A stretch of 64,000 nucleotides of DNA from Bacteroidota bacterium. GTDB taxonomy: Bacteria > Bacteroidota > Bacteroidia > JABDFU01. The stretch lies in the NCBI GenBank assembly GCA_016183775.1, contig JACPDY010000098.1, positions 13,547 through 77,546 on the forward strand, read 5' to 3'. Each line of letters opens with the position of its first letter. Position 1 is the stretch's first letter. Shown one piece after another: positions 1,578 to 24,362 of the stretch. A model generated the notes under the pieces. The model did no database searches. It saw nothing but the letters and a program-made list of their open reading frames with translations, and was not told the DNA's origin. The translations under genes and the position numbers were made by a program.

Positions 1578-1801
1578 TACGGATTATTCATCAGCGCGAT
1601 AAATGCATTGGATGTAATGCCTGCGTTGAAGCAGCCTGGTCAAGATGGAGAATGTCGCGGAAAGACGGGAAAAGTATTTTGATTGGCGGGATCAAAAAAA
1701 AATATATTTATTCGGCAGTTGTCGGCGATGACGAGCGAAGCGAAAATATTCAGGCATCCGTGAATTGCCCTGTAGGAATAATACAATTAATACAAATGTA
1801 A
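1574..1801 (+). CDS. Small ferredoxin-like protein with a single [4Fe-4S] motif (CIGCNAC...CP).
   Basis: CxxCxxC plus a distal CP, 75 aa. Start overlaps the U32 stop (ATGA), suggesting translational coupling. Confidence 0.45.
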   Translation: MIRIIHQRDKCIGCNACVEAAWSRWRMSRKDGKSILIGGIKKKYIYSAVVGDDERSENIQASVNCPVGIIQLIQM

Positions 1802-1802
1802 A

Positions 1803-2249
1803 ATGGGAATGGACAAAAAGATGGAATCCTTTATGGAAAGTCAGAAAAATTTAACCCTGTGTACGGCGGTTGATAATGCGCCTCATTGTGCAAGTTGTTT
1901 TTACGCTTATGTAAGCGAAGGCCATTTTGTTGTATTTAAATCTGATAAAAAAACACAACATGTATATAACGCATTTATTAATGATAAAGTTGCCGGCACA
2001 ATTATTCCGGATATTGATAAAACAGGAACCATAAAAGGCATTCAATTTATCGGAAAATTTATTGTGCCAACCGGAGCTTTTGCCGAACAGGTGAAAAAAA
2101 AGTATTATGGCAAATATCCTTTTGCCCTGGCGTTTGCCGGAGATTTATGGGGAATAGAATTGCAGTCGGTTAAAATGACCGACAATACGCTTGGATTTGG
2201 AAAAAAGCTGAGCTGGGAGAGATCAGTATCTGAAAAACAAACTTTATGA
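1803..2249 (+). CDS. Pyridoxamine 5'-phosphate oxidase-like FMN-binding protein (general stress protein 26 / YhbP-like).
   Basis: 148-aa protein. N-terminal LTLCT..D..PH..S.FYAY..EG.FVVF pattern is typical of the PNPOx-like split-barrel family. Confidence 0.5.
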   Translation: MGMDKKMESFMESQKNLTLCTAVDNAPHCASCFYAYVSEGHFVVFKSDKKTQHVYNAFINDKVAGTIIPDIDKTGTIKGIQFIGKFIVPTGAFAEQVKKKYYGKYPFALAFAGDLWGIELQSVKMTDNTLGFGKKLSWERSVSEKQTL

Positions 2250-2707
2250 AGAGAACGAAAAGTCCAAATGAATCGGAAACAATTATGACTGAAGTTGTTT
2301 TCCCAAATGACACTAATCCTATGGGAATTGTGCAGGGAGGAAGAATAATACAATTAATGGATATAGCTTGTGCCGTTTGCGCTCAAACACATTCGGGAAA
2401 GGTAGCTGTTACCGCTTCTATTGATAAAGTTTCCTTTAAGGAGTCTGCAAAATTAGGGGATATATTAACTGTGAAGGCGAAAATTACAAGGGCATTTACT
2501 ACTTCTATGGAGATTTATGCGGAAGTATGGGCCAAGCGCTTGCCGGATATGAAACCGTTCCTTGCAAATAAAGCCTTCTTTACATTTGTTGCTCTTGACG
2601 AGAACGCAAGGCCTACCGTCGTTATACCATTGAAACCCGTAACATCCCATGAAATAATACAATATGCCGAGGCATTGAAGAGAAGAAAGAGCAGAATAAA
2701 ACAATAA
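2246..2707 (+). CDS. Acyl-CoA thioesterase (hotdog fold, YciA-like).
   Basis: VVFPNDTNPMGIVQGGRIIQLMDIACAVCA motif is characteristic of the YciA/ACOT hotdog thioesterases. Confidence 0.75.
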   Translation: MKRTKSPNESETIMTEVVFPNDTNPMGIVQGGRIIQLMDIACAVCAQTHSGKVAVTASIDKVSFKESAKLGDILTVKAKITRAFTTSMEIYAEVWAKRLPDMKPFLANKAFFTFVALDENARPTVVIPLKPVTSHEIIQYAEALKRRKSRIKQ

Positions 2708-2718
2708 TAAACTTAACT

Positions 2719-4098
2719 ATGGAATTCAAAACGATAATAGAACCATTTAAAATAAAAATGGTTGAGCCGATTAAAATGACAACGCGTGAAGAGCGAAAGA
2801 TCTTTTTAGAACGGGCACACTATAATCCGTTTCTGCTAAGTTCGGAACAGGTAATGATTGATTTGCTTACGGACAGTGGTACATCGGCTATGAGCTCCAA
2901 TCAATGGGCCGGTATAATGATGGGTGACGAATCCTACGCAGGCGCTAAAAGCTGGCAAAGAATGGAAGCTGCAATCCATTCACTTACCGGATTGGAGTAT
3001 ATTTTTCCGACTCACCAGGGAAGGGCAGCCGAACGTATTTTGTATGGTTACCTCGGAGGCAAAGGAAAAACATTTATCAGTAATACACATTTTGACACCA
3101 CTCGTGCCAATATTGAATTTTCGGGTGCTGAAGCGATTGATATTCCAATTGCCGAAGGACTTAATCCGTCATTGATACATCCCTTTAAGGGAAATATGGA
3201 CTTGAAAAAATTAGAAAGGTTGATCAGGCAAAAAGGCCCGAAAAATATTGGAGGAGTTATACTTACGGTTACTAACAACAGTAGTGGTGGGCAGCCTGCA
3301 AGTATGGATAACGCGAAAGGCATAAGCCGGATATGCAAAAAATATAAGGTGAATTTTTTCCTTGATTGTTGCCGTATTGCCGAGAATGCCTACTTCATCA
3401 AACAGAGGGAGAGCGGCTTTGAAAAATATACTTACAAAGAAATCGCGCAGGAAATGTTTTCACTCACAGATGGAGCTATTATGAGCGCAAAGAAAGACGC
3501 ATTAGTGAATATGGGAGGATTCCTGGCGTTAAAAAATAAAAAGCTCGCAGATGCCTGTAGAAATCTTTTAATAATTACGGAAGGCTTCACAACATACGGA
3601 GGACTTTCAGGCAGGGATATGGAAGCTATCGCCATTGGCCTGGAAGAAGTTTTTGACGCCAATTATTTGCATTATAGAATAAGCAGTACGGCTTACCTTG
3701 GGAAAAGGCTTAATAAAATGGGTATTCCATTAATAATGCCTATTGGAGGACACGCGGTTTATATTGATGCGAAATCGCTTTATCCGCACATCCCGGTTAA
3801 TCAATACCCCGGACAAACCCTGGTATGTGAACTTTACCTGGCAGGAGGCATCCGTTCTGTAGAAATAGGTTCTGTAATGTTCGGTAAATATGACAAAAAG
3901 AAGGCACTCATTCCCGCATCAATGGAACTCGTTAGGCTGGCTATTCCAAGGAGAGTTTATACTCAAAGTCACATAGAATATGTAATAGAAATTTTTGAAA
4001 GGCTCTTGCTAAATCGAAAAAACACCAAAGGCTATAGGATTATTGAAGAACCTGAATTTTTAAGACATTTTACCGCTCATTTCATGCCGGCTTCCTGA
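2719..4098 (+). CDS. Tryptophanase / tyrosine phenol-lyase (PLP-dependent beta-eliminating lyase).
   Basis: N-terminus EPFKIKMVEPIKMTTREERK...FLLSSEQVMIDLLTDSGTSAMSSNQWAGIMMGDESYAG and C-terminal GGHAVYIDAK...ELVRLAIPRRVYTQSHIEYV closely resemble TnaA/TPL. TnaA cannot be distinguished from TPL by eye. Confidence 0.85.
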   Translation: MEFKTIIEPFKIKMVEPIKMTTREERKIFLERAHYNPFLLSSEQVMIDLLTDSGTSAMSSNQWAGIMMGDESYAGAKSWQRMEAAIHSLTGLEYIFPTHQGRAAERILYGYLGGKGKTFISNTHFDTTRANIEFSGAEAIDIPIAEGLNPSLIHPFKGNMDLKKLERLIRQKGPKNIGGVILTVTNNSSGGQPASMDNAKGISRICKKYKVNFFLDCCRIAENAYFIKQRESGFEKYTYKEIAQEMFSLTDGAIMSAKKDALVNMGGFLALKNKKLADACRNLLIITEGFTTYGGLSGRDMEAIAIGLEEVFDANYLHYRISSTAYLGKRLNKMGIPLIMPIGGHAVYIDAKSLYPHIPVNQYPGQTLVCELYLAGGIRSVEIGSVMFGKYDKKKALIPASMELVRLAIPRRVYTQSHIEYVIEIFERLLLNRKNTKGYRIIEEPEFLRHFTAHFMPAS

Positions 4099-4176
4099 CT
4101 TGCTTTATTTCAACGGATTTTAAGTTTCCCAGGCACAAGAATGACTTTTTCTCTACTCTTTTCCTATTATAAAAAT

Positions 4177-4190
4177 ATGATTCAAATCAT
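4177..4190. promoter_or_regulatory. Candidate Crp/Fnr-family site ATGATTCAAATCAT, ~28 bp upstream of the Crp/Fnr gene at 4218.
   Basis: Perfect palindrome, the same 14-mer as at 24363-24376. Confidence 0.45.
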
Positions 4191-4217
4191 ATTATATTAT
4201 GAGGAATAGTTACATCT

Positions 4218-4964
4218 TTGGGCATTCGATATCCGGTGCAGATGATAATTCCTTCAAACAAACAAAAAGAAGCACCTTCATGCGACAAGTGTGAATCTTC
4301 GCATAATTCTATTTTTTGTGTTTTAAACAAGGGAGAGTTAGCTGAGCTCTCAGAAAGCAAGTCATATATTTCATATAAAAAGGGGCAGATGATATTTTAT
4401 GAAGGGAATCATCCCCAGGGTTTGTATTGCATATATTCCGGAAAAGTAAAAATTCACAAGTTAGGACATGATGGGAAAGATCAGATCTTACGCCTTGCAA
4501 AAAAGGGGAATGTGATTGGGTATCGTGCATTGTTGGGCGATGATAGCTATCACGCATCGGCTACAGCAATGGAAGATTCAGTAATATGCTTCTTCCCTAA
4601 AGGGGTATATCAAAATCAAATCATTTCAAATGCCTCGCTTTCAATGCAGATTATAAGACTGCTCTCTGCCGACCTGAAATTAGCAGAACATAAAGCGATG
4701 AATATGGTACAAAAACAGGTGCGTGAACGAATTGCTGAAACTATTCTGATGTTAAAAGAGTTCTTCGGGCTTGAGTCTGATAATGCTACCATAAATACTG
4801 TTCTTACGCGGGAAAGTATCGGAAATATTGCAGGTACTACAACTGAAACTGCGATAAGAATTTTATCCGAGCTTAATAAAAATAAAACTATAGAGTTATT
4901 AGGAAAGAGAATAAAAATCCTGAATAGCAAGGAATTGATAAAAATTGCCAATATTAATGAGTAG
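4218..4964 (+). CDS. Crp/Fnr-family transcriptional regulator with an N-terminal Cys cluster (FNR-like).
   Basis: cNMP-binding-like beta-roll (FYEGNHPQGLYCIYSGKVKIHK) plus C-terminal HTH (TRESIGNIAGTTTETAIRIL). N-terminal CDKCESSHNSIFC cysteines. Confidence 0.8.
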   Translation: MGIRYPVQMIIPSNKQKEAPSCDKCESSHNSIFCVLNKGELAELSESKSYISYKKGQMIFYEGNHPQGLYCIYSGKVKIHKLGHDGKDQILRLAKKGNVIGYRALLGDDSYHASATAMEDSVICFFPKGVYQNQIISNASLSMQIIRLLSADLKLAEHKAMNMVQKQVRERIAETILMLKEFFGLESDNATINTVLTRESIGNIAGTTTETAIRILSELNKNKTIELLGKRIKILNSKELIKIANINE

Positions 4965-5113: not shown

Positions 5114-7081
5114 GTGAGTAAAAAGGAAAGAAAAGATAAATCTTCCAACACATCATCAGCCGGCTCCATTTCCGACAGAAAACTATATTTCTTCATTTTT
5201 GCTTTCTCTTTTTTACTCTATGGAAACACCATTAAGAATGGATTTTCTCTTGACGATGAATATGTTTCACGCAATCATGATCAGGTAAAGAAAGGCATAA
5301 GCGGTATAGCCGAAATTTTTTCGACGTATTATACGGCCGGTTCAAATACAACACATTTATATGGATATCGTCCAATTACAAAAGCAACTTATGCGATTGA
5401 ATATAGTTTGTTTGGAGAGAATCCTCATGTGAGCCATTTTATCAATATTATTATTTATGCTTTAATCGGAGTGGTTATTTTCCGTATGCTCAAAAAGTGG
5501 CTTACTAATTATAACATTGTTTTCCCCTTTTTAATTACGCTTTTATTCCTATCTCATCCCATACATACTGAAGTTGTCGCCTCTATAAAAAACCGGGATG
5601 TATTGTTAACATTTCTCGGAAGTTTTATTATGATATATTTCTCGCTCCGGTATATTGAATTAAACAAGTTTACCTATCTTCTGCTTTCAATTCTTTTTGC
5701 AGTTTTTGCTTTCCTCTCGAAACCGGAAACTGCTCCGGCCGCAGTTATTATTCCATTTGTCGTATATTTTTTCACAAATTCTTCGGTAAAGAAAGGTATT
5801 TGGATCGCGCTTCTCCTGACTGGTCTGGGGATATTGGTGCATTTAATGATAAGTGTTAATCTGCCATACCTCGGGAGACCAGAGAATACTATGGAGTTTC
5901 ACGATAATCCGCTATACTTTATAAAGGACTGGTCGATCCGGTTGGGTGTGGCTTTTAATTCACTCTATTACTACCTGCGGATGCTTATTGTACATTATCC
6001 ATTGCTTTATTTTTACGGATACAATACAATTCCTATTGAAAGTGTTTTTAATGTAGTTCCTCTTTTATCCTTGTTCATTCATCTCAGCATGGCGGTTTTT
6101 GCATTTCTGAATTTGAGAAAAAAAAGTATTCTTTCATTTGGAATTATTTGGTATCTCGTTTACGTTTCAATAATTGCAAATATTCTTATCCCGGCTGCAG
6201 GGATTGTAGCTGAGCGTTTTATTTTTGGCGCTTCATTCGGATTTTGTATTATACTTGCCTATTTCCTGTTGAAATTTTCAAAGGTGCATTTTGAATCAGT
6301 ATCCAAACGCTTTTCAGGGAATCCAACTTTTGTTTTTCTTTCAGGTATTATTCTTTTGCTATTTACGTGGCAAACAATTTCGCGAAACAATGACTGGAAG
6401 GACCAGCTCACACTTTTCCGCCACGACATACAATATCTGGACAATTCGGTAAAAGCGCATGAAACGCTAGGTGCTTCATTAATGAAAGAGAGTAATTTCG
6501 CAAAAAGTGAGGAAGAGCGTGCGCGGATAGTAGCCGAAGCCATAGGACACTATAAGCGCACATTGGAAATCTATCCGGACTTTGCAATGGGTAATAATAA
6601 TCTTGGAACCTTTTACGCTAATCTTTATAATGACTGCGAAAATGCCATTCCTCTTTTTATAAAAGCTATAGAAGTTGACAGTTCTTTCGGCGAGGCAATG
6701 ATCAATCTCGGATTGTGCTACACCCGTCAGTCAAGAATTGATGATGCGATCAGCATGCTGGAGCGCGGAATAACAATTGAACGGGGAAAATTCATGATCT
6801 CGTACACTACTTTAATAGCTTTATATTTTGAAAAAGGAAACTCAGAAAAGGGGATAAGATTATTTGAAGAAGCGGTGAAGTTTTTCCCGGATTCCGAAGT
6901 GCCATATAGGGAAATGGGAAATCAATATATCGCAAAAGGAGACACTCTTGAATCCGTAAAGTATTTTGGGTTATCCCTTAAGATTAAAGGCGACAGCCAG
7001 TTAAGTGATTTTGTTTCCAATTACTTTTACCGAAAAGGTGATACGCTCCGGGGGAAAGCGTATCAAATACAAAAAAGATAG
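5114..7081 (+). CDS. Polytopic membrane protein with C-terminal TPR repeats (PMT-like glycosyltransferase / DUF2723-type architecture).
   Basis: ~400 aa of hydrophobic TM segments, followed by TPR-like repeats (AxxxYxxAL pattern) in the last ~230 aa. Confidence 0.55.
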   Translation: MSKKERKDKSSNTSSAGSISDRKLYFFIFAFSFLLYGNTIKNGFSLDDEYVSRNHDQVKKGISGIAEIFSTYYTAGSNTTHLYGYRPITKATYAIEYSLFGENPHVSHFINIIIYALIGVVIFRMLKKWLTNYNIVFPFLITLLFLSHPIHTEVVASIKNRDVLLTFLGSFIMIYFSLRYIELNKFTYLLLSILFAVFAFLSKPETAPAAVIIPFVVYFFTNSSVKKGIWIALLLTGLGILVHLMISVNLPYLGRPENTMEFHDNPLYFIKDWSIRLGVAFNSLYYYLRMLIVHYPLLYFYGYNTIPIESVFNVVPLLSLFIHLSMAVFAFLNLRKKSILSFGIIWYLVYVSIIANILIPAAGIVAERFIFGASFGFCIILAYFLLKFSKVHFESVSKRFSGNPTFVFLSGIILLLFTWQTISRNNDWKDQLTLFRHDIQYLDNSVKAHETLGASLMKESNFAKSEEERARIVAEAIGHYKRTLEIYPDFAMGNNNLGTFYANLYNDCENAIPLFIKAIEVDSSFGEAMINLGLCYTRQSRIDDAISMLERGITIERGKFMISYTTLIALYFEKGNSEKGIRLFEEAVKFFPDSEVPYREMGNQYIAKGDTLESVKYFGLSLKIKGDSQLSDFVSNYFYRKGDTLRGKAYQIQKR

Positions 7082-7143
7082 GCTATAATATGGCCGTTAA
7101 TATTTAGAAGTGTTAAATACGCTGTGTTCAAATCCGGAGTATA

Positions 7144-8355
7144 TTAACTGCCGAAGCTTTTTTGATTTTTCGGTGTTTCAGAAAGAAGGTCTACCATGCA
7201 AACTGGAATTAACTTTCCGTTTCTGACAGTAATATCCGGACAATCTTTGCAGTACTCTATACTTCCTGATGCTGTCAAATTTGGGCCCTGCTGAAAACAG
7301 GTAAGCTTATATGTTATTTTAGATCCCGGCAATAATAGATTTAATAAGAACCCAATTGTATGAAATAAGGTAATAAAATTAAGACTGATAAAACCATACA
7401 GAAGGCAAACCGAAAATGTTTGAAATTCCGTCCAGACAACATCGAACGAATAAGTTCCGAATTTTTTTTGGTGAAGCATATTCCCTAAAATGGCAAGTCG
7501 CTTAAAGGAGGGCTTTACATGTAAAATTTTTGTTTTGCCATTTTTTTTACTGATGCTAAAAGAAAAATATATAAGCCATCGCATATCTTCTGAGTTTTCA
7601 CTTGAAGCGATGTATGCATAAGGAAGCATTTTGTAATTCCCGTATAAGCTGTGAAACACTTCCTTGTTAGTAACCTGCTGATGAACTAGGGATTCTTTGT
7701 TTGCTTCTGATTTGTAATGACGATCTTTCCCAAATTTTTCACTGATTTTTGATGAGTCGCAGCAGCAAGTGACAAGCAGCCATTGGTAGCCTGGCGATTT
7801 CAGGTAATACTCAAAAAAAGCGGGAAAGTCCTTTAAACTATCTTGATACAATGTAACTTCCAGGCCGCACTTAATCCCATGAGTTAAAATTCTATTTGAA
7901 ATTGTTTCGCGTAAAGTATTTAATTCATTTTCAGAAGCTCCGCTTTCAACATCAGGCCGTTGTTGCTGAGAATCAATATGGAGAAAGATTTTAAAAAGGC
8001 CCGCTTCTTTATATAGCTTCAACCTTTTATCTGTTAAGGCAAAACCATTGCTTAGCATTTGCACCATAACACCCTTTTGAGCAATGTATTTAATGACTTC
8101 AGGTAGTTTGGGATGCAGGCTGGGCTCGCCGCCTGCCAGTGTAATGACATGTAAATTTCTCCGGGAAACAGCGTAGTCAACTTCGGATTTAATTTCATCC
8201 AGCGGCTTGGTATAGTCGAATTTGGATTTATAACAAGCCCTGCAGGTTATATTGCATTTTTGATTTACCTCGATTATCAGGTGCGGCACATCTTTGCCTT
8301 CAAATGGCAGCATTACAGGATGATCTGTATTGTCTGGAATATCTTTGAATAGCAT
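7144..8355 (-). CDS. Radical SAM protein of unknown function, with an atypical Cys-rich C-terminal half.
   Basis: CNITCRACY is a CxxxCxxC motif, and GGEPSLHP matches the GGE SAM-binding motif. C-terminus carries CCC and CKDCPD...C clusters that do not match a canonical SPASM domain. Confidence 0.7.
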   Translation of the reverse strand: MLFKDIPDNTDHPVMLPFEGKDVPHLIIEVNQKCNITCRACYKSKFDYTKPLDEIKSEVDYAVSRRNLHVITLAGGEPSLHPKLPEVIKYIAQKGVMVQMLSNGFALTDKRLKLYKEAGLFKIFLHIDSQQQRPDVESGASENELNTLRETISNRILTHGIKCGLEVTLYQDSLKDFPAFFEYYLKSPGYQWLLVTCCCDSSKISEKFGKDRHYKSEANKESLVHQQVTNKEVFHSLYGNYKMLPYAYIASSENSEDMRWLIYFSFSISKKNGKTKILHVKPSFKRLAILGNMLHQKKFGTYSFDVVWTEFQTFSVCLLYGFISLNFITLFHTIGFLLNLLLPGSKITYKLTCFQQGPNLTASGSIEYCKDCPDITVRNGKLIPVCMVDLLSETPKNQKSFGS

Positions 8356-8502
8356 TAGGCGGGTGCTTGACTTAAATTTTTAAACCCAATAAGTAATTAA
8401 TAAACCTTGTAGTTTAGTTAGAATATTAGGGCACAGCCGTTAAAGTACAATAGATAACATTTACTCTACCCCATATTTAGCTTATGGAACAAATCCAACA
8501 GC

Positions 8503-8652
8503 TCACTTGAAGAGAACACTTAGCTCCATAAGCCCTATAATCATAAGAAGCAAAAACAGCATCAGGATAAAAAAAACACCGGACAATATCAATACTCCAG
8601 AGAAGACTTTTTTATTTACTTCCCTGTTATCTCCCTTTTTGCTTTCCAACAT
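8503..8652 (-). CDS. Possible 49-aa single-TM micro-protein (MLESKKGDNREVNKKVFSGVLILSGVFFILMLFLLLMIIGLMELSVLFK).
   Basis: Hand-translated minus-strand ORF, not in the supplied track. GGAG lies 5 nt upstream of its ATG. It sits between the 68-aa membrane gene and the radical SAM gene. Confidence 0.25.
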   Translation of the reverse strand: MLESKKGDNREVNKKVFSGVLILSGVFFILMLFLLLMIIGLMELSVLFK

Positions 8653-8699
8653 ACGTCTCCTTTTCCAAAATCTAATCGGTCCTCATCTACTCTATAATT

Positions 8700-8726
8700 C
8701 AATCACTCACCGATCCTGAGTGATTG
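8700..8726 (-). terminator. 10-bp perfect stem-loop (CAATCACTCA-ccgatcc-TGAGTGATTG) overlapping the stop of the 68-aa membrane gene.
   Basis: Inverted repeat seen directly. No clear U-tract on the minus strand, so it may be an attenuator or RNA-processing hairpin rather than a terminator. Confidence 0.3.
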
Positions 8727-8913
8727 AAACGCTGGTGCTGTTTTTATCCTGAATCCTTTTATCAATAGATGGTTTTACAACATTGATTAAAACCCAAAAC
8801 ATCACAAAAGTTATTGCGCCCCAAATAGTCAGAATAATTAACGCCCATAGTGGAGCCCTGAAAAGTAAGTCTTCCGTTATTGTCAATTTTAATTGTGCTC
8901 TGCTGATGGCCAT
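8707..8913 (-). CDS. Small single-TM membrane protein (68 aa).
   Basis: Hydrophobic core LWALIILTIWGAITFVMFWVLINVV. Sits 13 bp downstream of the hemerythrin-like gene in the same orientation. Confidence 0.4.
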   Translation of the reverse strand: MAISRAQLKLTITEDLLFRAPLWALIILTIWGAITFVMFWVLINVVKPSIDKRIQDKNSTSVSITQDR

Positions 8914-8925
8914 AATTACATGTTT

Positions 8926-9462
8926 TTATATCAAATTATTTTGTATTTCCCTTAATTGATCTTTGAATGCGGCTTTTTGTTGCTCACCAATTGCCCGGTC
9001 GCAATCTTCAAACCTGAAGTATATTTTTTCAAGTTCCTCTTTAGTCAGAAGGGTTTCTGCCATTTGAAATACTTCATCGTTTTCAACAGCAATATGATCA
9101 AGCAGCGCTTCTGTATAAATACGGAGTTGTTGTTGTACACGGAGGTAATCCTTTTTACCAAGAAACGCTTCAATATTCCTGATCAGACCGCGGAAGTCTT
9201 CGTGATTTTCAAACATTTCCTTTATTACACCGTCTGCCAACAACTCATTTTTTTTATTCATTTCCGGGAAAAGAATATCTTCTTCCTTACGGTGATGATA
9301 CTGATCCGCATAACATTTGAAAAACTTAATCAATTGACTAAGAATTGTTATATATCTTGTTTCGTCTTTTACAAGCAGCGAATCTAATTTCCCTGCTATA
9401 TCTATCGCAAGGACTATAGTTTCATGTTCATTGTACAGTGTCTTTATCGGATCCTTCATCAC
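8926..9462 (-). CDS. Hemerythrin HHE cation-binding domain protein.
   Basis: YADQYHHRKEEDILFPEM and HIAVENDEVF motifs are typical di-iron His/Glu ligands of hemerythrin-like domains. Confidence 0.7.
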   Translation of the reverse strand: MMKDPIKTLYNEHETIVLAIDIAGKLDSLLVKDETRYITILSQLIKFFKCYADQYHHRKEEDILFPEMNKKNELLADGVIKEMFENHEDFRGLIRNIEAFLGKKDYLRVQQQLRIYTEALLDHIAVENDEVFQMAETLLTKEELEKIYFRFEDCDRAIGEQQKAAFKDQLREIQNNLI

Positions 9463-9474
9463 CTAAAATTATTT

Positions 9475-10506
9475 CTATACTATCTGCCAGATTTTTTCTC
9501 CGGACAATATTTTGTTTAAGGGAAGCTTCCCCTTTTTGATTTTAGCATTTTCAACCTGAAGTCTCAATTCCTCTTCATAAATTGTCCTTTCCTCAGTGTA
9601 AACTACGCCAAATGGCCGCGGGAAATGAACTTCAGTACTATCTGAGAATCGTGCTATGATATTGGCTTTTGTTTTATTCCTTTCATCATGTATCCATAGA
9701 TCTTCAATAGATAGGCCGGCTTCTTTAATATTTACAATAACAGGTTTTAATCCGTCCAGCTTTATTCCTTTTTCTTCACTGTTGCCAAACACAAGCGGTT
9801 TCCCGTGATTGATATAAATCGCTTCTTCCTTTTTTGTTTCCTTTTCAGAAAACGGGAAAAAGGCGCCATCATTGAATATCGGGCAGTTCTGATATATTTC
9901 AACAAACGCTCCTCCTTTATGTTGATGAGCGCGCTTAATAACAGCTTGCATATGTTTCGGGTCCCTGTCGAGTGTGCGGGCTATAAATGTTGCTTTAGCA
10001 CCGAGCGCCAACTCTATCGGATTAAAGGGCTCTTCAATAGATCCATAGGGAGTTGTTTTAGTGATTTTACCTTTTTCTGAAGTCGGAGAATATTGTCCTT
10101 TTGTAAGGCTATATATCTGGTTATTGAACACAAGCATTTTGATATCAAAATTCTTTCTCATAAAATGGATAAAGTGATTCCCCCCGATAGATAGGGCATC
10201 TCCATCGCCGCTGATAATCCACACACTCAATTCGGGATTAGCCATCTTAACACCGGAGGCAATGGCCGCAGCTCTTCCATGAATACTGTGCATGCCAAAT
10301 GTATCCATGTAATATGTAAAACGCGAAGAGCAGCCAATACCGGAAATAAAAACGAAATTCTCTTTTGGAATTCCTAATTCCGGAAATACAGTTTGCACCT
10401 GTTTCAAAATGGAGTAATCTCCGCAGCCCGGACACCACTTCACATCCTGATCCGGGATAAAATCCCTGGGAATGAGTTTTGAACCTGTATTTGTAATACT
10501 GTTCAT
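9475..10506 (-). CDS. korB: 2-Oxoglutarate:ferredoxin oxidoreductase beta subunit (TPP-binding).
   Basis: WCPGCGDYSIL N-terminal motif and a TPP-binding GDG region (ISGDGDALSIGGNH). Confidence 0.9.
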   Translation of the reverse strand: MNSITNTGSKLIPRDFIPDQDVKWCPGCGDYSILKQVQTVFPELGIPKENFVFISGIGCSSRFTYYMDTFGMHSIHGRAAAIASGVKMANPELSVWIISGDGDALSIGGNHFIHFMRKNFDIKMLVFNNQIYSLTKGQYSPTSEKGKITKTTPYGSIEEPFNPIELALGAKATFIARTLDRDPKHMQAVIKRAHQHKGGAFVEIYQNCPIFNDGAFFPFSEKETKKEEAIYINHGKPLVFGNSEEKGIKLDGLKPVIVNIKEAGLSIEDLWIHDERNKTKANIIARFSDSTEVHFPRPFGVVYTEERTIYEEELRLQVENAKIKKGKLPLNKILSGEKIWQIV

Positions 10507-12395
10507 TTATCGTTTAGTGTTTTAATAATCTTGTCCTTCAATTCCCGTGTAGTAAAAGGCAACCCTTGTATTTTATTGAAGCCAGTAGCAGGAATAAGAT
10601 ATTTTGCCCGGATGAGTTGAATGAGCTGGCCTGAATTTATTTCGGGAATCAATACTTTTTTGAAATTTCTGAGAAGCTCACCGAGGTTTTTCGGGAATGG
10701 ATTAATATGCCGGAGATGTATATTCGCTACATCATATCCCTCTTCGGCCAGCTCAAGCACAGTGGTTTTAATTGTTCCGTATGTAGAGCCCCAGCTTAAT
10801 ACAACCACGCCGGCATTTTCACTGCCTGTGTCTACCTGGGCTAACGGAATATAATCGGCTATTTTTTGTATTTTTTCCGCACGCAGCTGTGTCATCAATT
10901 CGTGATTTTGGGGATCGTGGGAGACATTGCCTGTATCATTTTGTTTTTCCAGTCCACCAATGCGATGCTCAAGTCCTTTTGTGCCTGGCTTAATCCATGA
11001 GCGTGCGAGTTTCTCATTTCGCTTGTATGGGAGCAAGCCTTCTGCTTCTGAATGCGGTTTGGTGAGAAAACCTGCGTTAATTTCTCTGAGCCGATCTTCG
11101 GTAGGGAAACGCCAGGGCTCCGAGCCATTCGCGATGTATCCGTCACTTAAAAGAATCACCGGTGTCATGTGTTCAACCGCGATCCTGCATGCTTCATAAG
11201 CCGCATCAAAGCAATCGGAGGGGGAAGATGCAGCCAATACAGGGAGTGGAGATTCTCCATGTCTTCCATACATTGCCATTAAGAGGTCTGATTGTTCGGT
11301 TTTTGTAGGAAGTCCTGTTGAAGGTCCCCCTCGCTGAACATTAATAACAACCAAAGGAATCTCGAGCATTGCAGCCAGTCCGAGAGCTTCTGTTTTCAAC
11401 GAAAAACCGGGTCCCGATGTTGTGGTTACAGCCAGGTTTCCAGCGTAAGATGCGCCAATCGCTGAGCATATTCCGGATATCTCATCTTCTGCCTGGAACG
11501 TTAATACTCCGTTCGCTTTGTATTTTGAAAGCTCATGCAATATATCAGATGCCGGGGTAATTGGGTATGACCCAAGGAACAAAGGTAATCTGGCTTTTTC
11601 AGAAGCCGCAAGCAATCCAATAGCTGTAGCGTGGTTACCTGAAATGTTCCGGTAGTTCCCGGTTGGCAGCTTGGCTGAGGAGATTCTAAATCGGGTAGTA
11701 AAAATTTCCGTGTTTTCTCCGAAATTCCAACCTGCCTGCAGCGATTTGATATTCGCGTCAGCCATATCCTGATTTTTTCCAAACTTTTCCTTTATAAAAT
11801 TCAAAGTATAATCAAGCGGCTTATTAAACATCCAGAAAAGAATACCCAGAACAAACATGTTTTTACAACGTTCCCTTTCTTTTGTTCCAAGGCCTGTGCC
11901 CGAAAGCACTTCATTATTAAGCTTGCTTACTTCTACTTTATAAATGATGTAATTGTCAAGCGAGTTGTCTTCGAGGGGGTTAGTACCCGTCGTATAATTG
12001 GCCAGCTTTAAATTTTTAGCATCGAATCCGGATGTATTGGCTATCAGAATCCCGCCCATTTTTAATTTGGGGAAATCCACTTTTAATGCTGCGGCATTCA
12101 TGGCTACCAATACATCATATTGATCTCCCGGAGTAAAGATTTCTTTGCTCCCAAAGTGTACCTGAAAGCCTGAAACACCTGCCACTGTGCCGGCCGGCGC
12201 ACGAATCTCAGAAGGATAGTCCGGAAATGTATTCAGATCCTGGCCCAGAAAAGCTGCAGTGTCTGTAAATTGCATGCCTGTAAGCTGCATACCATCACCA
12301 GAATCGCCGGAAATGCGGATAACTATGCTTTCCGATTCCACACTATTTATGATTTTCTTTTCCTGTCCTTTCAATATGTCCACACTATCCTGCAA
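10503..12395 (-). CDS. korA: 2-Oxoglutarate:ferredoxin oxidoreductase alpha subunit (fused alpha/gamma).
   Basis: 630-aa pyruvate/2-oxoacid:ferredoxin oxidoreductase domains. 4-bp overlap with korB. Confidence 0.9.
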   Translation of the reverse strand: MQDSVDILKGQEKKIINSVESESIVIRISGDSGDGMQLTGMQFTDTAAFLGQDLNTFPDYPSEIRAPAGTVAGVSGFQVHFGSKEIFTPGDQYDVLVAMNAAALKVDFPKLKMGGILIANTSGFDAKNLKLANYTTGTNPLEDNSLDNYIIYKVEVSKLNNEVLSGTGLGTKERERCKNMFVLGILFWMFNKPLDYTLNFIKEKFGKNQDMADANIKSLQAGWNFGENTEIFTTRFRISSAKLPTGNYRNISGNHATAIGLLAASEKARLPLFLGSYPITPASDILHELSKYKANGVLTFQAEDEISGICSAIGASYAGNLAVTTTSGPGFSLKTEALGLAAMLEIPLVVINVQRGGPSTGLPTKTEQSDLLMAMYGRHGESPLPVLAASSPSDCFDAAYEACRIAVEHMTPVILLSDGYIANGSEPWRFPTEDRLREINAGFLTKPHSEAEGLLPYKRNEKLARSWIKPGTKGLEHRIGGLEKQNDTGNVSHDPQNHELMTQLRAEKIQKIADYIPLAQVDTGSENAGVVVLSWGSTYGTIKTTVLELAEEGYDVANIHLRHINPFPKNLGELLRNFKKVLIPEINSGQLIQLIRAKYLIPATGFNKIQGLPFTTRELKDKIIKTLNDK

Positions 12396-12646
12396 GTAAT
12401 GTCTTCTTTTTTAATTGGAGTTCTTCTTTCGATTCCATTCTTTCCTCATCCTGTATGCAACAATTAACAGGATACCGTAAAACATTGGGGTTCATCATAA
12501 AAGCCGGCACACTCAGTGCATTTTTCCGGAACAATGAAATAGATATTTTGGCTTAAGCCTGGTTGCGCGGTATCAGCATCCGCTGTAATTCCTAAATACC
12601 CTCCAATAAAACTTTGTAAATAAACTTGTTTCCGAAAATAATTACT

Positions 12647-12660
12647 ATGATGCAGGTCAT
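12647..12660. promoter_or_regulatory. Imperfect Crp/Fnr-like site ATGATGCAGGTCAT (7/8 core match) in the korA / polyferredoxin divergent region.
   Basis: One mismatch (GTCA vs ATCA). Resembles the site at 34021-34034 (ATGATGCACATCAT). Confidence 0.25.
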
Positions 12661-12927
12661 AGTTTATAATAGGCGCAAAAGATAAATTAACTTGTGCATA
12701 GCAGCATACAATGGTGAAATTCGTAATGTACTTTCATCGTTTGAGTTCAACTTATTGTGAATAATTATATCATGCGCATATGATGATATCCAGGAGATTG
12801 TATGGAGGACTATATGTTGAATTAAGGAGGAATGGCATACTTCATGAATCCATTCCCAATATTTTGCACACCGGAGAGTTCCGGAAATTTCGTTATAAAA
12901 AGAAATTATTAAATGAAATGTTGAGCA

Positions 12928-14907
12928 ATGCCTGATTACAGTCTTCGGCGATCAATAGTTCTTGGAAGTGTATACCTGTTAATTGGTCTGCATATTGCGC
13001 ACTGGAAAATTTCAGGCTGCTCCCTGGCACCACTGGAACTTAATGAAGTGTCGTATACGCTTCATTTAGGAATGATAACTGCCGGATTTATTTTTATGTC
13101 TGCTGCTGTTATTTCAACACTTATTGTGGGCCGTTTTTTTTGTTCCTGGGGATGTCATCTGCTCGCCCTACAGGATTTGTCATCATGGTTACTTTCTAAA
13201 GCCGGCATACGTCCGAAGCCTGTTCGATCCCGTATGTTATTGTGGATACCCATACTTGCCATGTTCAATCTTTTTATTTTTCCACTGGCAAAACGCCTAT
13301 GGGAAGGAAATGGATTGCCCGATTTTCATGTTGTTTCAGATGTACATCAATGGTCTTCATTTATTTCCAATAACCTTTGGAGAAATCTTCCCGGTCCCGG
13401 TATTACAGTATTAACTTTTGTGGTCTGTGGATTTCTGATGATTTACTTTTTGGGATCCAGAAGCTTTTGTAATTACGCATGTCCGTATGGCGCTATTTTC
13501 TCAGTTGTAGATCGCCTGGCTCCCGGCCGGATTGCACTTACCGGTGATTGTACTCAATGCGGGTTATGCACCGCCCGATGCCAGTCAGATATCAGGGTAC
13601 ATGAAGAAATTAACCGTTTTGGAATGGTAGTTAATCCTGCATGTCTGAAAGATCTTGATTGCGTGAGTGTTTGCAACGAACAAGCCATTCATTTCAGTTT
13701 TACCTCGCCTCCTTTATTTGGCAAAGATACCCAGGTAAAAAAATATTATTCTTACTCCCGTTTTGAGGATTTTGTAATCGGTATAATTTTTTTGCTGAGC
13801 CTGTTTATCCTCAGGGGACTTTATGAAACAATTCCGTTTCTGCTTGCAATTGCGATTTCTATTTTATTTGCCAGCTATTTCCTTTTCGCTTACCGGCTTA
13901 TAAAAGAAAAGGGGATCTGTCTTTTTAATAACAACACCCTGAAAAAAATGGGGAGATATACTTCTGTCGGCAAATTTTCGCTGATCATAGGGTTGTTTAT
14001 ATTATCTTTCATGTTACACAGTATATTTATCCGTTGGCATTATTATTCAGGAACACGGGCATATCTTTTAGTCAAAAAATATGCTGAAGTTTCGGCAGGG
14101 GGCTATATGTCGCCTCACCTGTTTAAAACTGCAGACCTGGCATTAGTACATTTTAAAAAAATTGACAGGTGGGGTTTACTGACGCCGGCGAGCATAAATC
14201 GTCAGCTGGCTTCCTTATATCTGATGCAGAGGGATTATCCGTTGGCTGTACAGCATTTGCAAAAAACCTTACTGCAATCACCCGCTGATAATGAGGCGCG
14301 GTTGCGGTTGGGAAATGCATATCACCTTTGGGGTAAAAGCGCTGAAGCTTCCGACGTATTTCGGAATCTGATCTCCGGATTTGGACAACTATTTTCGAAA
14401 CGAGATACAGCGATATTTGCGGGTGCAAATTCGCAATTGGGAGATATTTTAGTGTCTCAAAAAAAATACAGAAGTGCATTTCTTTGTTATTCTGCTGCTT
14501 TATCAATGGATTCCTGCAATGCTGTTCTGTGGCTTTCTTATGGATCCGCCCTGGTAAAAAACGGACAACTCTCCCGGGCAAAAGACTGCCTGATAAAAAG
14601 CCTGGAAATTGATCCCGGCTGTGCACCAGCACATTTTAACCTGGGAACAGTTTACGCGCTCATGAGTCAAACAGAAGATGCTGTACTGCATTACCGCTTG
14701 TCGGCTCAATTGAACCCTAAAAGGGCAGAAACATTCTGTAATCTCGGTATACTTTTTTTCAAACAGCACAAATTTAATGAAGCGGAAGTTGCTCTTGGCA
14801 AAGCAGGGGAATTGGATCCAAATTCAGCTATTATATATTCTTACATGGCCAAGGTGCTTGATGAAAAGAAGGAAAGCCACAGGTCGGATAATATTATTCA
14901 ACAGTAA
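12928..14907 (+). CDS. NapH/MauN-type membrane polyferredoxin (4Fe-4S) fused to C-terminal TPR repeats.
   Basis: N-terminal TM region with FCSWGCHLLALQDL, then CNYACPYGAIFS and CTQCGLCTARCQSD ferredoxin motifs. C-terminal ~300 aa are TPR-like (AxxYxxxG, LxPxxAxxxxNLG repeats). Confidence 0.65.
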   Translation: MPDYSLRRSIVLGSVYLLIGLHIAHWKISGCSLAPLELNEVSYTLHLGMITAGFIFMSAAVISTLIVGRFFCSWGCHLLALQDLSSWLLSKAGIRPKPVRSRMLLWIPILAMFNLFIFPLAKRLWEGNGLPDFHVVSDVHQWSSFISNNLWRNLPGPGITVLTFVVCGFLMIYFLGSRSFCNYACPYGAIFSVVDRLAPGRIALTGDCTQCGLCTARCQSDIRVHEEINRFGMVVNPACLKDLDCVSVCNEQAIHFSFTSPPLFGKDTQVKKYYSYSRFEDFVIGIIFLLSLFILRGLYETIPFLLAIAISILFASYFLFAYRLIKEKGICLFNNNTLKKMGRYTSVGKFSLIIGLFILSFMLHSIFIRWHYYSGTRAYLLVKKYAEVSAGGYMSPHLFKTADLALVHFKKIDRWGLLTPASINRQLASLYLMQRDYPLAVQHLQKTLLQSPADNEARLRLGNAYHLWGKSAEASDVFRNLISGFGQLFSKRDTAIFAGANSQLGDILVSQKKYRSAFLCYSAALSMDSCNAVLWLSYGSALVKNGQLSRAKDCLIKSLEIDPGCAPAHFNLGTVYALMSQTEDAVLHYRLSAQLNPKRAETFCNLGILFFKQHKFNEAEVALGKAGELDPNSAIIYSYMAKVLDEKKESHRSDNIIQQ

Positions 14908-16978
14908 TCTTGCCTGCTGCCAAAGTAGTTCTCTCTGAAAATATTTTGTAGAAATAAAGGCCATTTGTCAGACCCATCTTGCCAATAACTGTTGTACCGG
15001 AAGATATATTTGTCGCTGTCTTAACAATTCGTCCTGTAATATCATAAATTACAAGACGATAATTAATTACTGTACCCTCCTCAATTTTTATGTTTAATAC
15101 ATCTGTGAATAAATTACGGGTAAGCGTGTAATCTGGCATAGATTTATCAAAACGCTTTGCTCTTAGGAGGCAGGTTTTGTCAACAAATGCTGTCCCAGAT
15201 ACCCGGGCGCTTGCCGGATGAAAGTCGGCAGTTGTTATCTCCCAGTCATAAAGACAGGTATAATCACTTTTCCCTAATCCTGAAGTTTTTATTGATAAAA
15301 CACCGGGTATAGTATATGGATAGCTGAGGTTGGCGGTGTTTCCATAAAAGGCATGACCAGAATCGGCTTTAATGAAGAGCATATAATTAAATTCAGGAAT
15401 GACAGGAAATCCAAGTGGAATACGATTCTTTCCGGTAACCAGACTTACTCTTTTTGTATTAAGTTCATTGCCACTCCACTCCAACATTGACAGGGTAAAT
15501 GTTCCTGGATTTTTTGCATAAACTGTTATAGCCTCAAGTGTAAAGGGCGACATACAGTCAAATATCAAGTATGATGAACGTTTATAGTATTTCCCTTCAC
15601 CACTCGTATCTGATTTGCCAACATGACCCGACAGCCCTGGTATTGTTTTCACATTTTCTACAAAGAAGGTTGTTGAGTTTGTAAGAGAAGGGGTCATATA
15701 TGAATTTCCCTTTGCTACAACTCTCCCCCCGATTGGCTTATCGTACCATACAAGGCTTTCAGTGCCAAATGCCTTCAACAGCACAGAGTCACCTGAGCAA
15801 ATTGTATCGCCAATAGTTATGGGAGGAGCAGGTGGATCAAGCATATTCACAGTAAGCGGTGCTGATGTAGCGGTCCCACACGGGCTTGTAAGCGTCACAT
15901 AGTATATTCCTCCTGACTTCACTGTAATAAATGAAGTAGTATCACCGGTTGACCATTTGTAAGAATAGGCGGCTGTTGCAAGAAGTTTTAAACTGTCTCC
16001 CTGACAAATAGTAGTGGGCCCCTGGGGATAAATAATAGCCGTAGGATTTCCGACATTGTCCTGCCTGGACAAATTAACTGGTACTGTTATTATATTATTG
16101 CTCTTGTCCGATTCAAGAAAATGATTGTCAGGATCGATTTCTAATACCAGATAGTAATCATTTCCGTTACATGTTCCTGGTGGAATGTCTATCCACATAC
16201 CATAGAGATTTTTATCATATGTGTCAGTATAGCCGGGAGATATGCCCTGAAATCCCAAAGCACAGTCATAATATCCTTCCCTTCCGGAGTTGGGGAATTT
16301 ATCGTCAAGCAATATATTGTCTTTTGAATCCCGGCAGATACCGGGATAGGAGGAGCATTTTCGCTCATCATCTAAACAGAATGAATTTTTGTAGGCTCCT
16401 GCGACTATTGGCCATTTTTTAGGATTAGGCTCTTTCGGATTTTTAAGCCGTAAGCTCAGAAATTCAAAATTCCCAATATAAAAACTTGAGCTCAGCACGT
16501 TATATGGCATTGCACCCAATACGTGATCAAAATAAGAAACAGAATCCGATGTTTTTTGATAGATGCGCTGTATCACTATATGCTTGGGCTCAAGACCATC
16601 CGGGCATTTACCTATATACCCGGTAGAGAAGGTATCACTGCCGCATACCAAAAAATTTGTAGTACGTAATTCAAGAGGTCCTGATCCGATATTTGGTGTT
16701 GAAACAGAGAGCCTCAGCCTGCCATCATTCATACTAAAATCGGCGTTTTTTTGAGGATATTCAATATACCCTCCCGTATCCGTCAGAATTTGGCGGGAGA
16801 TAGTCATGTCAGGCAACAAATCGCAGTTTATAGTGGTTTCATTAATGCATTTGCTTCCTCTGGCGTCTTTAGTTGTGCAGGATTGGGAATACATAGCAAG
16901 TAATAAAGAAACATAACAAAGTAAAAAGGATATTGAACGTTTAACTAAATGTGAAAAATTTAATACGAATGAAAGCAT
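14894..16978 (-). CDS. Secreted T9SS cargo protein with a lysyl-oxidase-like domain, Ig-like beta repeats and a Por C-terminal sorting domain.
   Basis: Signal peptide. Segment KNSFCLDDERKC...GISPGYTDTYDKNLYGMWIDIPPG...YYLVLEIDPDNHFLESDKSNN parallels the LOX catalytic domain (ASFCLEDTSC...[33 protein letters not shown]...ESDYTNN). C-terminus GLYFYKIFSERTTLAAGKITVE is T9SS-CTD-like. Confidence 0.6.
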   Translation of the reverse strand: MLSFVLNFSHLVKRSISFLLCYVSLLLAMYSQSCTTKDARGSKCINETTINCDLLPDMTISRQILTDTGGYIEYPQKNADFSMNDGRLRLSVSTPNIGSGPLELRTTNFLVCGSDTFSTGYIGKCPDGLEPKHIVIQRIYQKTSDSVSYFDHVLGAMPYNVLSSSFYIGNFEFLSLRLKNPKEPNPKKWPIVAGAYKNSFCLDDERKCSSYPGICRDSKDNILLDDKFPNSGREGYYDCALGFQGISPGYTDTYDKNLYGMWIDIPPGTCNGNDYYLVLEIDPDNHFLESDKSNNIITVPVNLSRQDNVGNPTAIIYPQGPTTICQGDSLKLLATAAYSYKWSTGDTTSFITVKSGGIYYVTLTSPCGTATSAPLTVNMLDPPAPPITIGDTICSGDSVLLKAFGTESLVWYDKPIGGRVVAKGNSYMTPSLTNSTTFFVENVKTIPGLSGHVGKSDTSGEGKYYKRSSYLIFDCMSPFTLEAITVYAKNPGTFTLSMLEWSGNELNTKRVSLVTGKNRIPLGFPVIPEFNYMLFIKADSGHAFYGNTANLSYPYTIPGVLSIKTSGLGKSDYTCLYDWEITTADFHPASARVSGTAFVDKTCLLRAKRFDKSMPDYTLTRNLFTDVLNIKIEEGTVINYRLVIYDITGRIVKTATNISSGTTVIGKMGLTNGLYFYKIFSERTTLAAGKITVE

Positions 16979-17224
16979 CGCCTATGTTATTTGGTAAGTT
17001 GGGAATACAAATTATTTTTGATAAACATTTTAAGTATGTGAACTTTTCTGAAAAAACAGGCTTGCAAATCGCAGTTCAAAATAGCAGGTATGAGTACTTC
17101 CAGGGGAGGAAGAAATCGGCAAGTTGGTATAAAGATATTTGATGCAGGCCGAAAAAATTATGATCAAACGCAATAGAAGATTTTGTTTATGAACAGAAAC
17201 AAAATCAGATATGGGAACAGCCGA

Positions 17225-18451: not shown

Positions 18452-18468
18452 TTTTTCAGATAATTTGC

Positions 18469-19401: not shown

Positions 19402-19402
19402 T

Positions 19403-22204: not shown

Positions 22205-22205
22205 T

Positions 22206-22946
22206 TTAAATCATATTACTTCCAATACTTTTACCGCCATCCACATAAATTGTTTGACCTGTTATAAACTGTGTCGTTTCTGCAGCCAGGAAGGAAACTG
22301 CGGTTGCCACATCCTCCGGTTTTCCCATGGACTTTGTTGGCTGCGCTTCAATTAATTTTCCTAAAATTTCCTTTTCCAATTTTTGTGTAAGCGGTGTGTC
22401 AATTAGCCCCGGGGCTATTGCATTTACAAACACATTATATTTGCCGAGCTCGAGGGCTAAAGCTCGTGTAAGCGAAACAACACCTGCTTTGGATGCGGAG
22501 TAATTACTTTGTCCGCGATTCCCAAGCCATGCGCGTGAAGATATGTTAATGATTCGCCCCCCATTTTGCCTTTTCATAATTATTGCCGCTTCCCGGCACA
22601 TTAACCAGGTACCTTTCAGGTTTATATTTATTACTGTATCAAATTCGGCAGTAGTCATGTTCCAGATCAGGTTATCACGAATAACGCCGGCATTGTTTAC
22701 CAGTATATCAACCTGTTTGTGCTTCGAAATAATTTTCTGAAATAATTGTTGGATGATTTTCTCTTTGGTGATGTCGGCTTTGGCAAAGCTCAATTTGTCT
22801 TTGCCGAATTCAGCCAAAAGCTTTTTGCCGCCATTTTCATCTATATCAATCGCGATTACAAAACAGTTATCTGCAATGAGTTTCTTTACGATCGCTTTTC
22901 CAATACCTTTTCCTGCGCCGGTTACGAGTGCAATTCTTTTTCCCAT
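22206..22946 (-). CDS. SDR-family NAD(P)-dependent oxidoreductase.
   Basis: TGAGKGIGKAI Rossmann motif, NNAG, and YSASKAG catalytic triad region. Confidence 0.85.
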   Translation of the reverse strand: MGKRIALVTGAGKGIGKAIVKKLIADNCFVIAIDIDENGGKKLLAEFGKDKLSFAKADITKEKIIQQLFQKIISKHKQVDILVNNAGVIRDNLIWNMTTAEFDTVININLKGTWLMCREAAIIMKRQNGGRIINISSRAWLGNRGQSNYSASKAGVVSLTRALALELGKYNVFVNAIAPGLIDTPLTQKLEKEILGKLIEAQPTKSMGKPEDVATAVSFLAAETTQFITGQTIYVDGGKSIGSNMI

Positions 22947-24314: not shown

Positions 24315-24362
24315 TCTCAGTCCATTTATATACGAAAGTATTCTTATTCGCCTTTTAATATT

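Follow-up and report, generated by a model that had tools for sequence, protein, structure and literature searches.

The question raised by the 64,000-nucleotide stretch of Bacteroidota DNA treated here (the window) is what kind of chemistry is carried out by a 403-amino-acid (aa) radical S-adenosylmethionine (SAM) protein encoded on the minus strand at 7144-8355, downstream of genes for a 2-oxoacid:ferredoxin oxidoreductase (korA and korB), a hemerythrin-domain protein, and two very small proteins. An earlier note, made from the DNA letters, suggested a peptide or cofactor maturase, or a haem-related or anaerobic repair enzyme. The observations in that note were largely right, and so was its interpretation of the enzyme as atypical and as linked to korAB and hemerythrin; it erred on the likely chemistry and on the weight given to the small genes. 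Nothing was found that indicates a peptide, cofactor, or haem maturase, and the best relative is Tes/GDGT-MAS, the tetraether lipid synthase of archaea, which couples lipid tails. As judged from profile and structure comparisons, the protein represents a rare, conserved, and unannotated family that is a distant, N-terminally truncated relative of Tes/GDGT-MAS. It may be a Tes-like radical SAM enzyme with two clusters that acts on a hydrophobic chain, i.e., a lipid. We give this function somewhat less than an even chance, roughly 45%, and are much more confident that the protein belongs to a distinct Tes-related family. No paper was found in the literature on this radical SAM family or on a unit of korAB, hemerythrin, and radical SAM genes.

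The N-terminal half of the protein is canonical, as had been claimed. The radical SAM model PF04055 scores 56.8 bits (cut-off 29.5), the Pfam match being confined to the core at residues 29-129, and both the cluster motif C34-x3-C38-x2-C41 (8233-8256, minus strand) and the GGE motif (residues 75-77) are present. The hidden Markov model scan gives this core match only, which bears out the description of the enzyme as atypical and as lying outside the SPASM and B12 groups. None of the curated NCBIfam cut-offs is reached. The model of the tungsten-cofactor oxidoreductase radical SAM maturase gives both the highest score (62.6 bits; cut-off 380) and the longest match (residues 22-225). No SPASM or twitch model matches, nor does the B12-binding domain PF02310, and the radical SAM motif begins already at residue 34. 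The models for SPASM, twitch, B12, HemN, anSME, NirJ/Ahb, MoaA, and the tungsten-cofactor maturase were rejected, as each covers the core only and all scores are far below the cut-offs. Neither of the housekeeping families that the earlier note had named as fatal to its proposal, HemN-like enzymes and anaerobic sulfatase maturases, thus accounts for the protein.

The AlphaFold model of the protein is confident (predicted local distance difference test (pLDDT) score 90.5, predicted TM-score 0.90), and at every level of comparison the best match among solved structures is GDGT-MAS (PDB 7TOL and 7TOM). By sequence the E-value to 7tol is 3e-9, with the alignment starting at chain residue 112, and by profile it is 6.6e-17. 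In Foldseek GDGT-MAS is the sole match that spans the whole protein (about 450 columns, TM-score 0.58), and the C-terminal half matches nothing but GDGT-MAS. The only named family among the relatives found by sequence search is TrsS (NF045646), a radical SAM (seleno)protein related to Tes, represented by the protein P0050 (E 4.5e-6). When the family was compared by hhalign to an alignment of TrsS proteins (Tes relatives retrieved with P0050), the probability was 99% and the E-value 3e-18 over residues 25-388, the C-terminal motif included. Against the single sequence of P0050 only the core was aligned, so the TrsS alignment is needed to reach the C-terminus. The TrsS profile in turn aligns with 7tol over the full length (E 1e-106), and the residue correspondences to GDGT-MAS given below come from these two alignments chained together. 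The numbering of 7tol could be fixed because Met439 and Tyr459 were recovered at chain positions 459 and 479.

The chained alignments place F354-Q355...N359 on F441...N446 of GDGT-MAS, C369 on C455, C386 on C470, and C372 on H458. A domain homologous to the C-terminal [Fe4S4]C domain of Tes is thus present in the family, and it is on the basis of these correspondences that the radical SAM core and a three-cysteine site, aligned to the C-terminal cluster region of GDGT-MAS, are considered to be kept. Conservation was counted in 66 diverse family members, down to 24% identity. C34, C38, C41, G75, E77, H126, Q131, C372, and C386 are invariant in all of them, while C369 is present in 59 and the remaining seven carry a cysteine one residue earlier; P373 and D389 are nearly invariant. 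The C-terminal motif, a predicted auxiliary-cluster site, can accordingly be written C369-x2-C372-P-D-x11-C386-x2-D389 (7189-7251, minus strand). The earlier note had pointed to two cysteine clusters in this half of the protein. Both exist, and CKDCPD...C (residues 369-386) is the conserved one, whereas the columns of CCC (residues 197-199) are mostly L, Y, or R in the family. Between the core and the motif, residues 282-341 (7333-7512, minus strand) form three helices in the AlphaFold model (282-299, 310-323, and 327-341) with block mean pLDDT values of 91-98. The part at 310-341 is strongly hydrophobic, and the hydrophobicity of the block is retained throughout the family. By analogy with GDGT-MAS (PMC9433317) these last two helices might form the pocket for a lipid substrate.

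The relationship to Tes/GDGT-MAS (NF045702) thus comprises the radical SAM core, a homologous C-terminal motif of the form F-Q/M-x-x-x-N...C...P-x-C, a hydrophobic helical region at the same place, and a three-cysteine site without a fourth cysteine ligand. GDGT-MAS binds two lipid tails in hydrophobic pockets and joins them by a C(sp3)-C(sp3) bond. Lloyd et al. (PMC9433317) describe its C-terminal cluster as ligated by three cysteines and a labile methionine and as trapping the first substrate radical in a C-S adduct. The family differs in being bacterial, about 100 residues shorter at the N-terminus, and only 18% identical, and in taking its third cysteine from a CxxC of its own. TrsS shares the core and the C-terminal motif in the profile alignment, but keeps the N-terminal zinc-ribbon and Cys-rich domains as well as a Cys/Sec-rich insert, and P0050 scores 576 bits on the TrsS model compared with 56.9 for the 403-aa protein. 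The SPASM/twitch enzymes (anSME, PqqE, SuiB, Gms) also combine a radical SAM core with a C-terminal Fe-S domain, and Gms likewise forms a C-C bond in lipids. The family, however, has three conserved C-terminal cysteines with the spacing CX2CX13C, as opposed to the CX2CX5CX3C type of SPASM, which binds one or two fully ligated auxiliary clusters. On these comparisons the 403-aa protein is regarded as a distinct minimal variant and not as a member of the Tes equivalog.

The mechanism suggested by the relationship would start with cleavage of SAM by the cluster bound to C34, C38, and C41, giving a 5'-deoxyadenosyl radical. Helices 310-341 would bind a hydrophobic chain, most likely that of a lipid, and the radical would remove a hydrogen from one of its unactivated carbons. 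The putative C-terminal cluster (C369, C372, and C386, with one iron site open) might then hold or oxidize the substrate radical and thereby allow a C-C (or C-X) bond to form, as in GDGT-MAS. KorAB together with ferredoxin would be a source of low-potential electrons, and the di-iron hemerythrin might protect or repair the oxygen-sensitive clusters.

The family is small. Sequence search gave 50 relatives, nearly all full length (about 385-425 aa) and with uninformative entry names, and the entries that are 100% identical to the radical SAM protein and to the neighboring 68-aa protein both come from a metagenome-assembled genome (MAG) labeled "Bacteroidetes bacterium." When 1.84 billion representative proteins were searched with the family profile, 293 clusters at 50% identity were found with E <= 1e-30, and a scan of 185,579 species (one genome each) gave 63 loci, all in uncultured organisms. 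The hosts are mainly Bacteroidia, Planctomycetota, Myxococcota, Bdellovibrionota, Spirochaetota, and Aminicenantes, with additional occurrences in Verrucomicrobiota, Kiritimatiellae, Lentisphaerae, Omnitrophota, and Hydrogenedentota, and in one Woesearchaeota bin. No member was found in Thermotogae or Clostridia in that scan. The Woesearchaeota locus (L044; bin labeled Candidatus Woesearchaeota, an archaeon) combines a family gene with B12-radical SAM genes and both of the unknown partner proteins described below, and represents either a transfer across domains or a binning error. Two or three family paralogs often occur in tandem (L006 6925-10475; L009 5695-9239, encoding 405 and 412 aa; L031, L053, L064, and L069), often with an extra radical SAM gene of 358 aa directly 5' of them.

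Neighbors of the family gene up to about 10 kb away were compared in 78 loci, of which some are redundant and many incomplete. B12-binding radical SAM genes are found in 29 of them, MMPL/RND exporters in 12, and a GH3 enzyme that weakly resembles OlsH, the lyso-ornithine-lipid synthetase, in 10. Unknown proteins also recur: c4, which is weakly GNAT-like, in 15 loci, c5 in 11, and a 574-aa protein in nine loci, mostly from Aminicenantes. Two loci (L011, 1-10950, and L052) contain a string of genes encoding MMPL, a radical SAM protein of 369 aa, a 1415-aa protein, a B12-radical SAM protein, the family protein, and a carbamoyltransferase. The 1415-aa protein has the domains BcrAD_BadFG/DUF2229/HGD-D, which is the architecture of the ether-lipid enzyme Ger/PlsA (Sahonero-Canavesi et al., PMC13159169). 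Modified ether lipids of uncultured bacteria are a candidate product of this string; L052 is labeled Myxococcales. In marine and sediment genomes (L006-L009) one or two tandem family paralogs occur with other radical SAM, MMPL, LolA-like, DUF1302, ferredoxin, and B12-radical SAM genes; L001 has KAS III (twice), SDR, GT2, and acetyltransferase genes, and L003 has PLD, UbiA, and acyl-AMP ligase genes. Heterogeneous as they are, these contexts repeatedly point to hydrophobic or lipid metabolism.

Two further arrangements recur among the loci. Six of them (L040, L046, L054, L073, L074, and L075) combine two to seven B12-radical SAM genes with the weakly OlsH-like GH3 gene, conserved unknowns of about 365 and 242 aa, and a family member, and some of these add an amidohydrolase, a pyridoxal-phosphate (PLP) enzyme, or MMPL. 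The gene immediately 5' of the family gene in L055-L060, L065, L070, and L077, which are mostly from Aminicenantes, encodes a protein of about 575 aa that matches no Pfam model and is sometimes duplicated.

The link to korAB and hemerythrin proposed in the earlier note goes beyond a local coincidence but is not obligatory. Four loci with family proteins of 87% identity (L004, L005, L015, and L078) share the arrangement of korAB, hemerythrin, 68-aa, 49-aa, and radical SAM genes. In two Bacteriovoracaceae MAGs (L039 and L041) the order is rubrerythrin, ferredoxin, korA, korB, hemerythrin, and radical SAM. The family protein of these MAGs is only about 40% identical to that of the window, and the hemerythrin stop codon overlaps the radical SAM open reading frame (ORF); the korA product of the window is 53% identical to that of L039. 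The occurrence of the order korAB, hemerythrin, radical SAM in two phyla supports a functional link. On the other side, the whole block of korAB, hemerythrin, and small ORFs is absent at L013, which encodes a 70%-identical homolog and where the radical SAM gene lies divergent beside a NapH-like/TPR gene. The radical SAM gene can therefore stand alone, and most family loci are without korAB or hemerythrin. The simplest reading of the link is that KorAB and ferredoxin probably supply electrons, while the di-iron proteins would protect or repair oxygen-labile clusters.

Several observations weigh against a Tes-like enzyme acting on lipids. Only two of the three C-terminal cysteines align with cysteines of GDGT-MAS. 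The column equivalent to Met439 is variable (I, F, L, V, or M in the 66 members), although the M439A variant of GDGT-MAS is still active (PMC9433317), and Tyr459 falls on the P373 column, which is proline; the tyrosine preceding C369, Y368, is variable (H, I, Y, C, or F). The Tes model NF045702 gives 43.5 bits against a cut-off of 450 and covers residues 27-138 only. The N-terminal rubredoxin-like zinc ribbon (CX2C...CX2H; PF23545) gives no match and the [Fe4S4]N domain, with three cysteines and a histidine, is absent. Just 33 residues precede CxxxCxxC, and both domains are thus wholly missing. The second cluster and the lipid substrate of the 403-aa enzyme are predictions. The neighborhoods are heterogeneous, and the B12-radical SAM partners are found in pathways not concerned with lipids as well. 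In the window no lipid gene adjoins the radical SAM gene, the ferredoxin gene is apparently frameshifted, and korA is near the family gene in only six of the 78 loci, from two lineages.

Some of the same neighborhoods would also fit the tailoring of a hydrophobic natural product that is not a lipid, for instance by cross-linking a heavily C-methylated metabolite through a C-C bond, as one step in a biosynthetic cluster. Loci from PVC bacteria, Spirochaetota, Omnitrophota, and Bdellovibrionales have the family gene among two to seven B12-radical SAM genes, accompanied by genes for GH3, a GNAT-like protein, an amidohydrolase, and a PLP enzyme, a composition that is typical of clusters for secondary metabolites. 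However, MMPL, the Ger/PlsA-like enzyme, KAS III, and the OlsH-like GH3 favor lipids, and in the window and several other loci the gene lies outside any such cluster, so that this role seems unlikely, though not far-fetched. The korAB linkage might alternatively mean that the enzyme matures, activates, or repairs KorAB or some other metalloenzyme. The presence of ferredoxin, korAB, hemerythrin, and radical SAM genes together in two phyla, and the length of the match to the tungsten-cofactor oxidoreductase maturase model, speak for this. We consider it quite improbable, as the score of that match is far from its cut-off, korA is as scarce near family genes as stated above, and L013 has the radical SAM gene without korAB. 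Nor are 2-oxoacid:ferredoxin oxidoreductases known to depend on a radical SAM maturase.

A third possibility is that the enzyme matures one of the small proteins, i.e., that the 49-aa or the 68-aa product is the precursor of a ribosomally made peptide that is modified after translation (RiPP). The small ORFs lie directly 5' of the radical SAM gene, several peptide maturase models match the N-terminal part weakly, and radical SAM enzymes with C-terminal Fe-S domains often mature peptides. Nevertheless, the protein lacks SPASM and twitch domains and has three conserved C-terminal cysteines only, and the small ORFs are orphans with a single transmembrane helix, whose relatives are all at least 82% identical. 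They are absent at L013 and L039, and one of them is frameshifted in L078, which makes a peptide substrate very improbable. Scarcely credible, finally, is a viperin-like nucleotide-modifying (antiviral), haem, or anaerobic-repair enzyme. The prokaryotic viperin model (pVip, NF038283) reaches 54.8 bits against a cut-off of 180 and the PADLOC pVip model is covered at profile positions 6-125 of 257, i.e., only the shared core is matched, while the C-terminal half matches GDGT-MAS only. A role in a defense system was rejected since the pVip models match the core only and no defense or haem genes are adjacent.

Of the enzymes and organisms responsible for membrane-spanning and branched tetraether lipids in bacteria, only a part is known, and Tes homologs and Mss miss some producers (PMC13159169, PMC11868695). 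Mss, from Thermotoga and Thermoanaerobacter, is described as bacterial, strictly anaerobic, remotely related to Tes, and hydrophobic near the C-terminus, and it works alongside Ger (PMC13159169), the architecture of which adjoins the family in L011 and L052. These likenesses were drawn from the description of Mss only. In that paper, homologs are assigned to Mss at E <= 1e-50 and >= 30% identity to WP_129545148.1 / Tmari_0825. The lack of any family match in Thermotogae and Clostridia argues against orthology with Mss, without proving it. A wider proposal would be that the family forms a third, hitherto unrecognized class of radical SAM enzymes for lipid C-C bonds beside Tes and Mss, i.e., a minimal "mini-Tes" with two clusters. 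Uncultured anaerobic bacteria (Bacteroidota, Planctomycetota, Myxococcota, PVC, and Aminicenantes) would use it to make membrane-spanning, macrocyclic, or cross-linked lipids together with Ger/PlsA-like ether-forming enzymes and B12-dependent methylases. This proposal we hold to be clearly unlikely; if true, the family would be a candidate for unassigned sources of branched lipids of the glycerol dialkyl glycerol tetraether (GDGT) type in anoxic settings. Membrane-spanning and branched tetraether lipids serve widely as paleoclimate proxies. A compact Tes-like family of uncultured anaerobes, in some genomes chained to Ger/PlsA-like, B12-radical SAM, and MMPL genes, would be a concrete candidate open to testing. 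It would also be useful to enzymologists as a minimal scaffold with two clusters on which cluster-assisted C(sp3)-C(sp3) coupling could be studied. Even if the lipid idea is wrong, a rare conserved family has been defined, with a distinctive CX2CX13C site and a recurring link to a ferredoxin-reducing enzyme.

The genes of the block are all on the minus strand, in the places and the order that had been claimed. korA (10503-12395) encodes a protein of 630 aa and korB (9475-10506) one of 343 aa. The NCBIfam models for the alpha and beta subunits of 2-oxoacid:ferredoxin oxidoreductase are both above their cut-offs, TIGR03710 with 651.4 bits (cut-off 482.75) and TIGR02177 with 262.0 bits (cut-off 261.9), and KorB also matches PF02775. 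Judged from these models, with an assignment at the level of 2-oxoacid:ferredoxin oxidoreductase, the substrate is 2-oxoglutarate or another 2-oxoacid. The hemerythrin-domain protein (8926-9462; 178 aa) matches PF01814 with 60.3 bits (cut-off 25.3), so that the three identities first proposed all pass Pfam or NCBIfam cut-offs. It also resembles the di-iron domain of RIC/YtfE weakly, at a score well short of the cut-off (E about 3e-4). Then follow the 68-aa ORF (8707-8913) and the 49-aa ORF (8503-8652), each with one predicted transmembrane helix. From korA to the radical SAM gene the spacings are -4, 12, 12, 54, and 147 nucleotides (nt), and 351 nt separate the stop codon of the 68-aa ORF from the radical SAM start, in agreement with the short or absent gaps and the last one of about 350 bp described earlier. 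A ferredoxin gene precedes korA in L004, L015, and L039. In the window, tblastn with the 116-aa Fer4 protein of L004 finds two pieces in different frames (12592-12473 and 12480-12388), and the ORF list of the window contains no intact ferredoxin ORF at 12388-12592 (minus strand). This remnant is either a frameshifted pseudogene or the result of a sequencing error.

The two small ORFs had been presented as part of the system, and a check of their conservation shows that neither accompanies the family outside this lineage. Among 5.8 billion sequences the 68-aa protein has three clusters only (100, 84, and 82% identity); it has no relatives in the metagenome scan and no match in Pfam, NCBIfam, or PADLOC. 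Gene prediction includes the ORF in L004, L005, and L078, and its substitutions relative to L004 are distributed 6/6/14 over the three codon positions. The 49-aa ORF has a GGAG 6 nt 5' of its ATG, as the earlier note had seen. In L004 its length and ends are kept, at 85% nucleotide identity compared with 68-70% in the flanks, and the substitutions are distributed 4/3/16 (binomial p = 4e-4). The third-position bias and the less conserved flanks argue that this ORF is translated, and it is probably a real, lineage-restricted small gene. The homolog in L078 (2173-2321) has a 1-nt deletion in a T8 run, with the downstream residues still conserved in the shifted frame, which suggests an assembly error, recent decay, or slippage. 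Both ORFs are missing from L013 and from the Bacteriovoracaceae loci (L039). The micro-proteins are lineage-specific additions and neither part of a conserved system nor, in all likelihood, a peptide substrate.

The hairpin reported between the two small ORFs does not stand out from chance. It folds at -3.8 kcal/mol (z = +0.83), and 159 of 200 shuffled sequences fold as well or better; the terminator scan gave no terminator-like site there. On the gene strand from korA through the radical SAM gene the only such site lies within korA, and in the 147-nt spacer before the radical SAM gene neither a terminator nor a promoter motif was found. Downstream of the radical SAM gene a terminator-like hairpin (7039-7065, minus strand) has an 11-bp stem followed by a T-rich tail; its region folds at z = -2.65, and the hairpin is contained in the 3'-terminal part of the convergent gene. 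Neither the radical SAM gene nor korA is preceded by the Bacteroidetes -7 motif TAnnTTTG, but this motif is equally absent at L013, where a promoter must exist, so that the promoter and terminator scans carry no information on co-transcription. A search for FNR boxes gave nothing near the genes of the locus, with overall counts not above chance, and no Rfam family occurs within 6900-13000.

Some of the surrounding genes are also found near family members elsewhere. A NapH/MauN-like membrane ferredoxin domain fused to a long tetratricopeptide repeat (TPR) region is encoded at 12928-14907 (plus strand) in the window and at 4024-6045 in L013. This gene adjoins the radical SAM gene in L013, and in the window only the korAB block intervenes. 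Convergent to the radical SAM gene of the window is a gene (5114-7081, plus strand) for a PMT_2/TMTC-like membrane glycosyltransferase with C-terminal TPRs; a similar protein is encoded at 3277-5283 in L001, a Bacteroidetes relative of 51% identity, where its distance to the family gene is 2.7 kb. Farther out, a block at 342-4964 (plus strand) flanks the radical SAM gene in three Bacteroidia lineages (L004, 11366-16086; L013, 7517-12114), and comprises a U32 peptidase, a small ferredoxin, an unknown protein of 148 aa, a 4HBT thioesterase, a beta-eliminating lyase, and a Crp-family regulator. On the other side, 14894-24371 (minus strand) encodes a lysyl-oxidase-like protein sorted by the type IX secretion system, a histidine kinase, a molybdoenzyme of the xanthine dehydrogenase family with its FAD subunit, an SDR, XdhC, and a MobA-like protein. 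As the molybdoenzyme directly precedes ferredoxin and korAB in L004, the window has a three-gene insertion 5' of ferredoxin-korAB.

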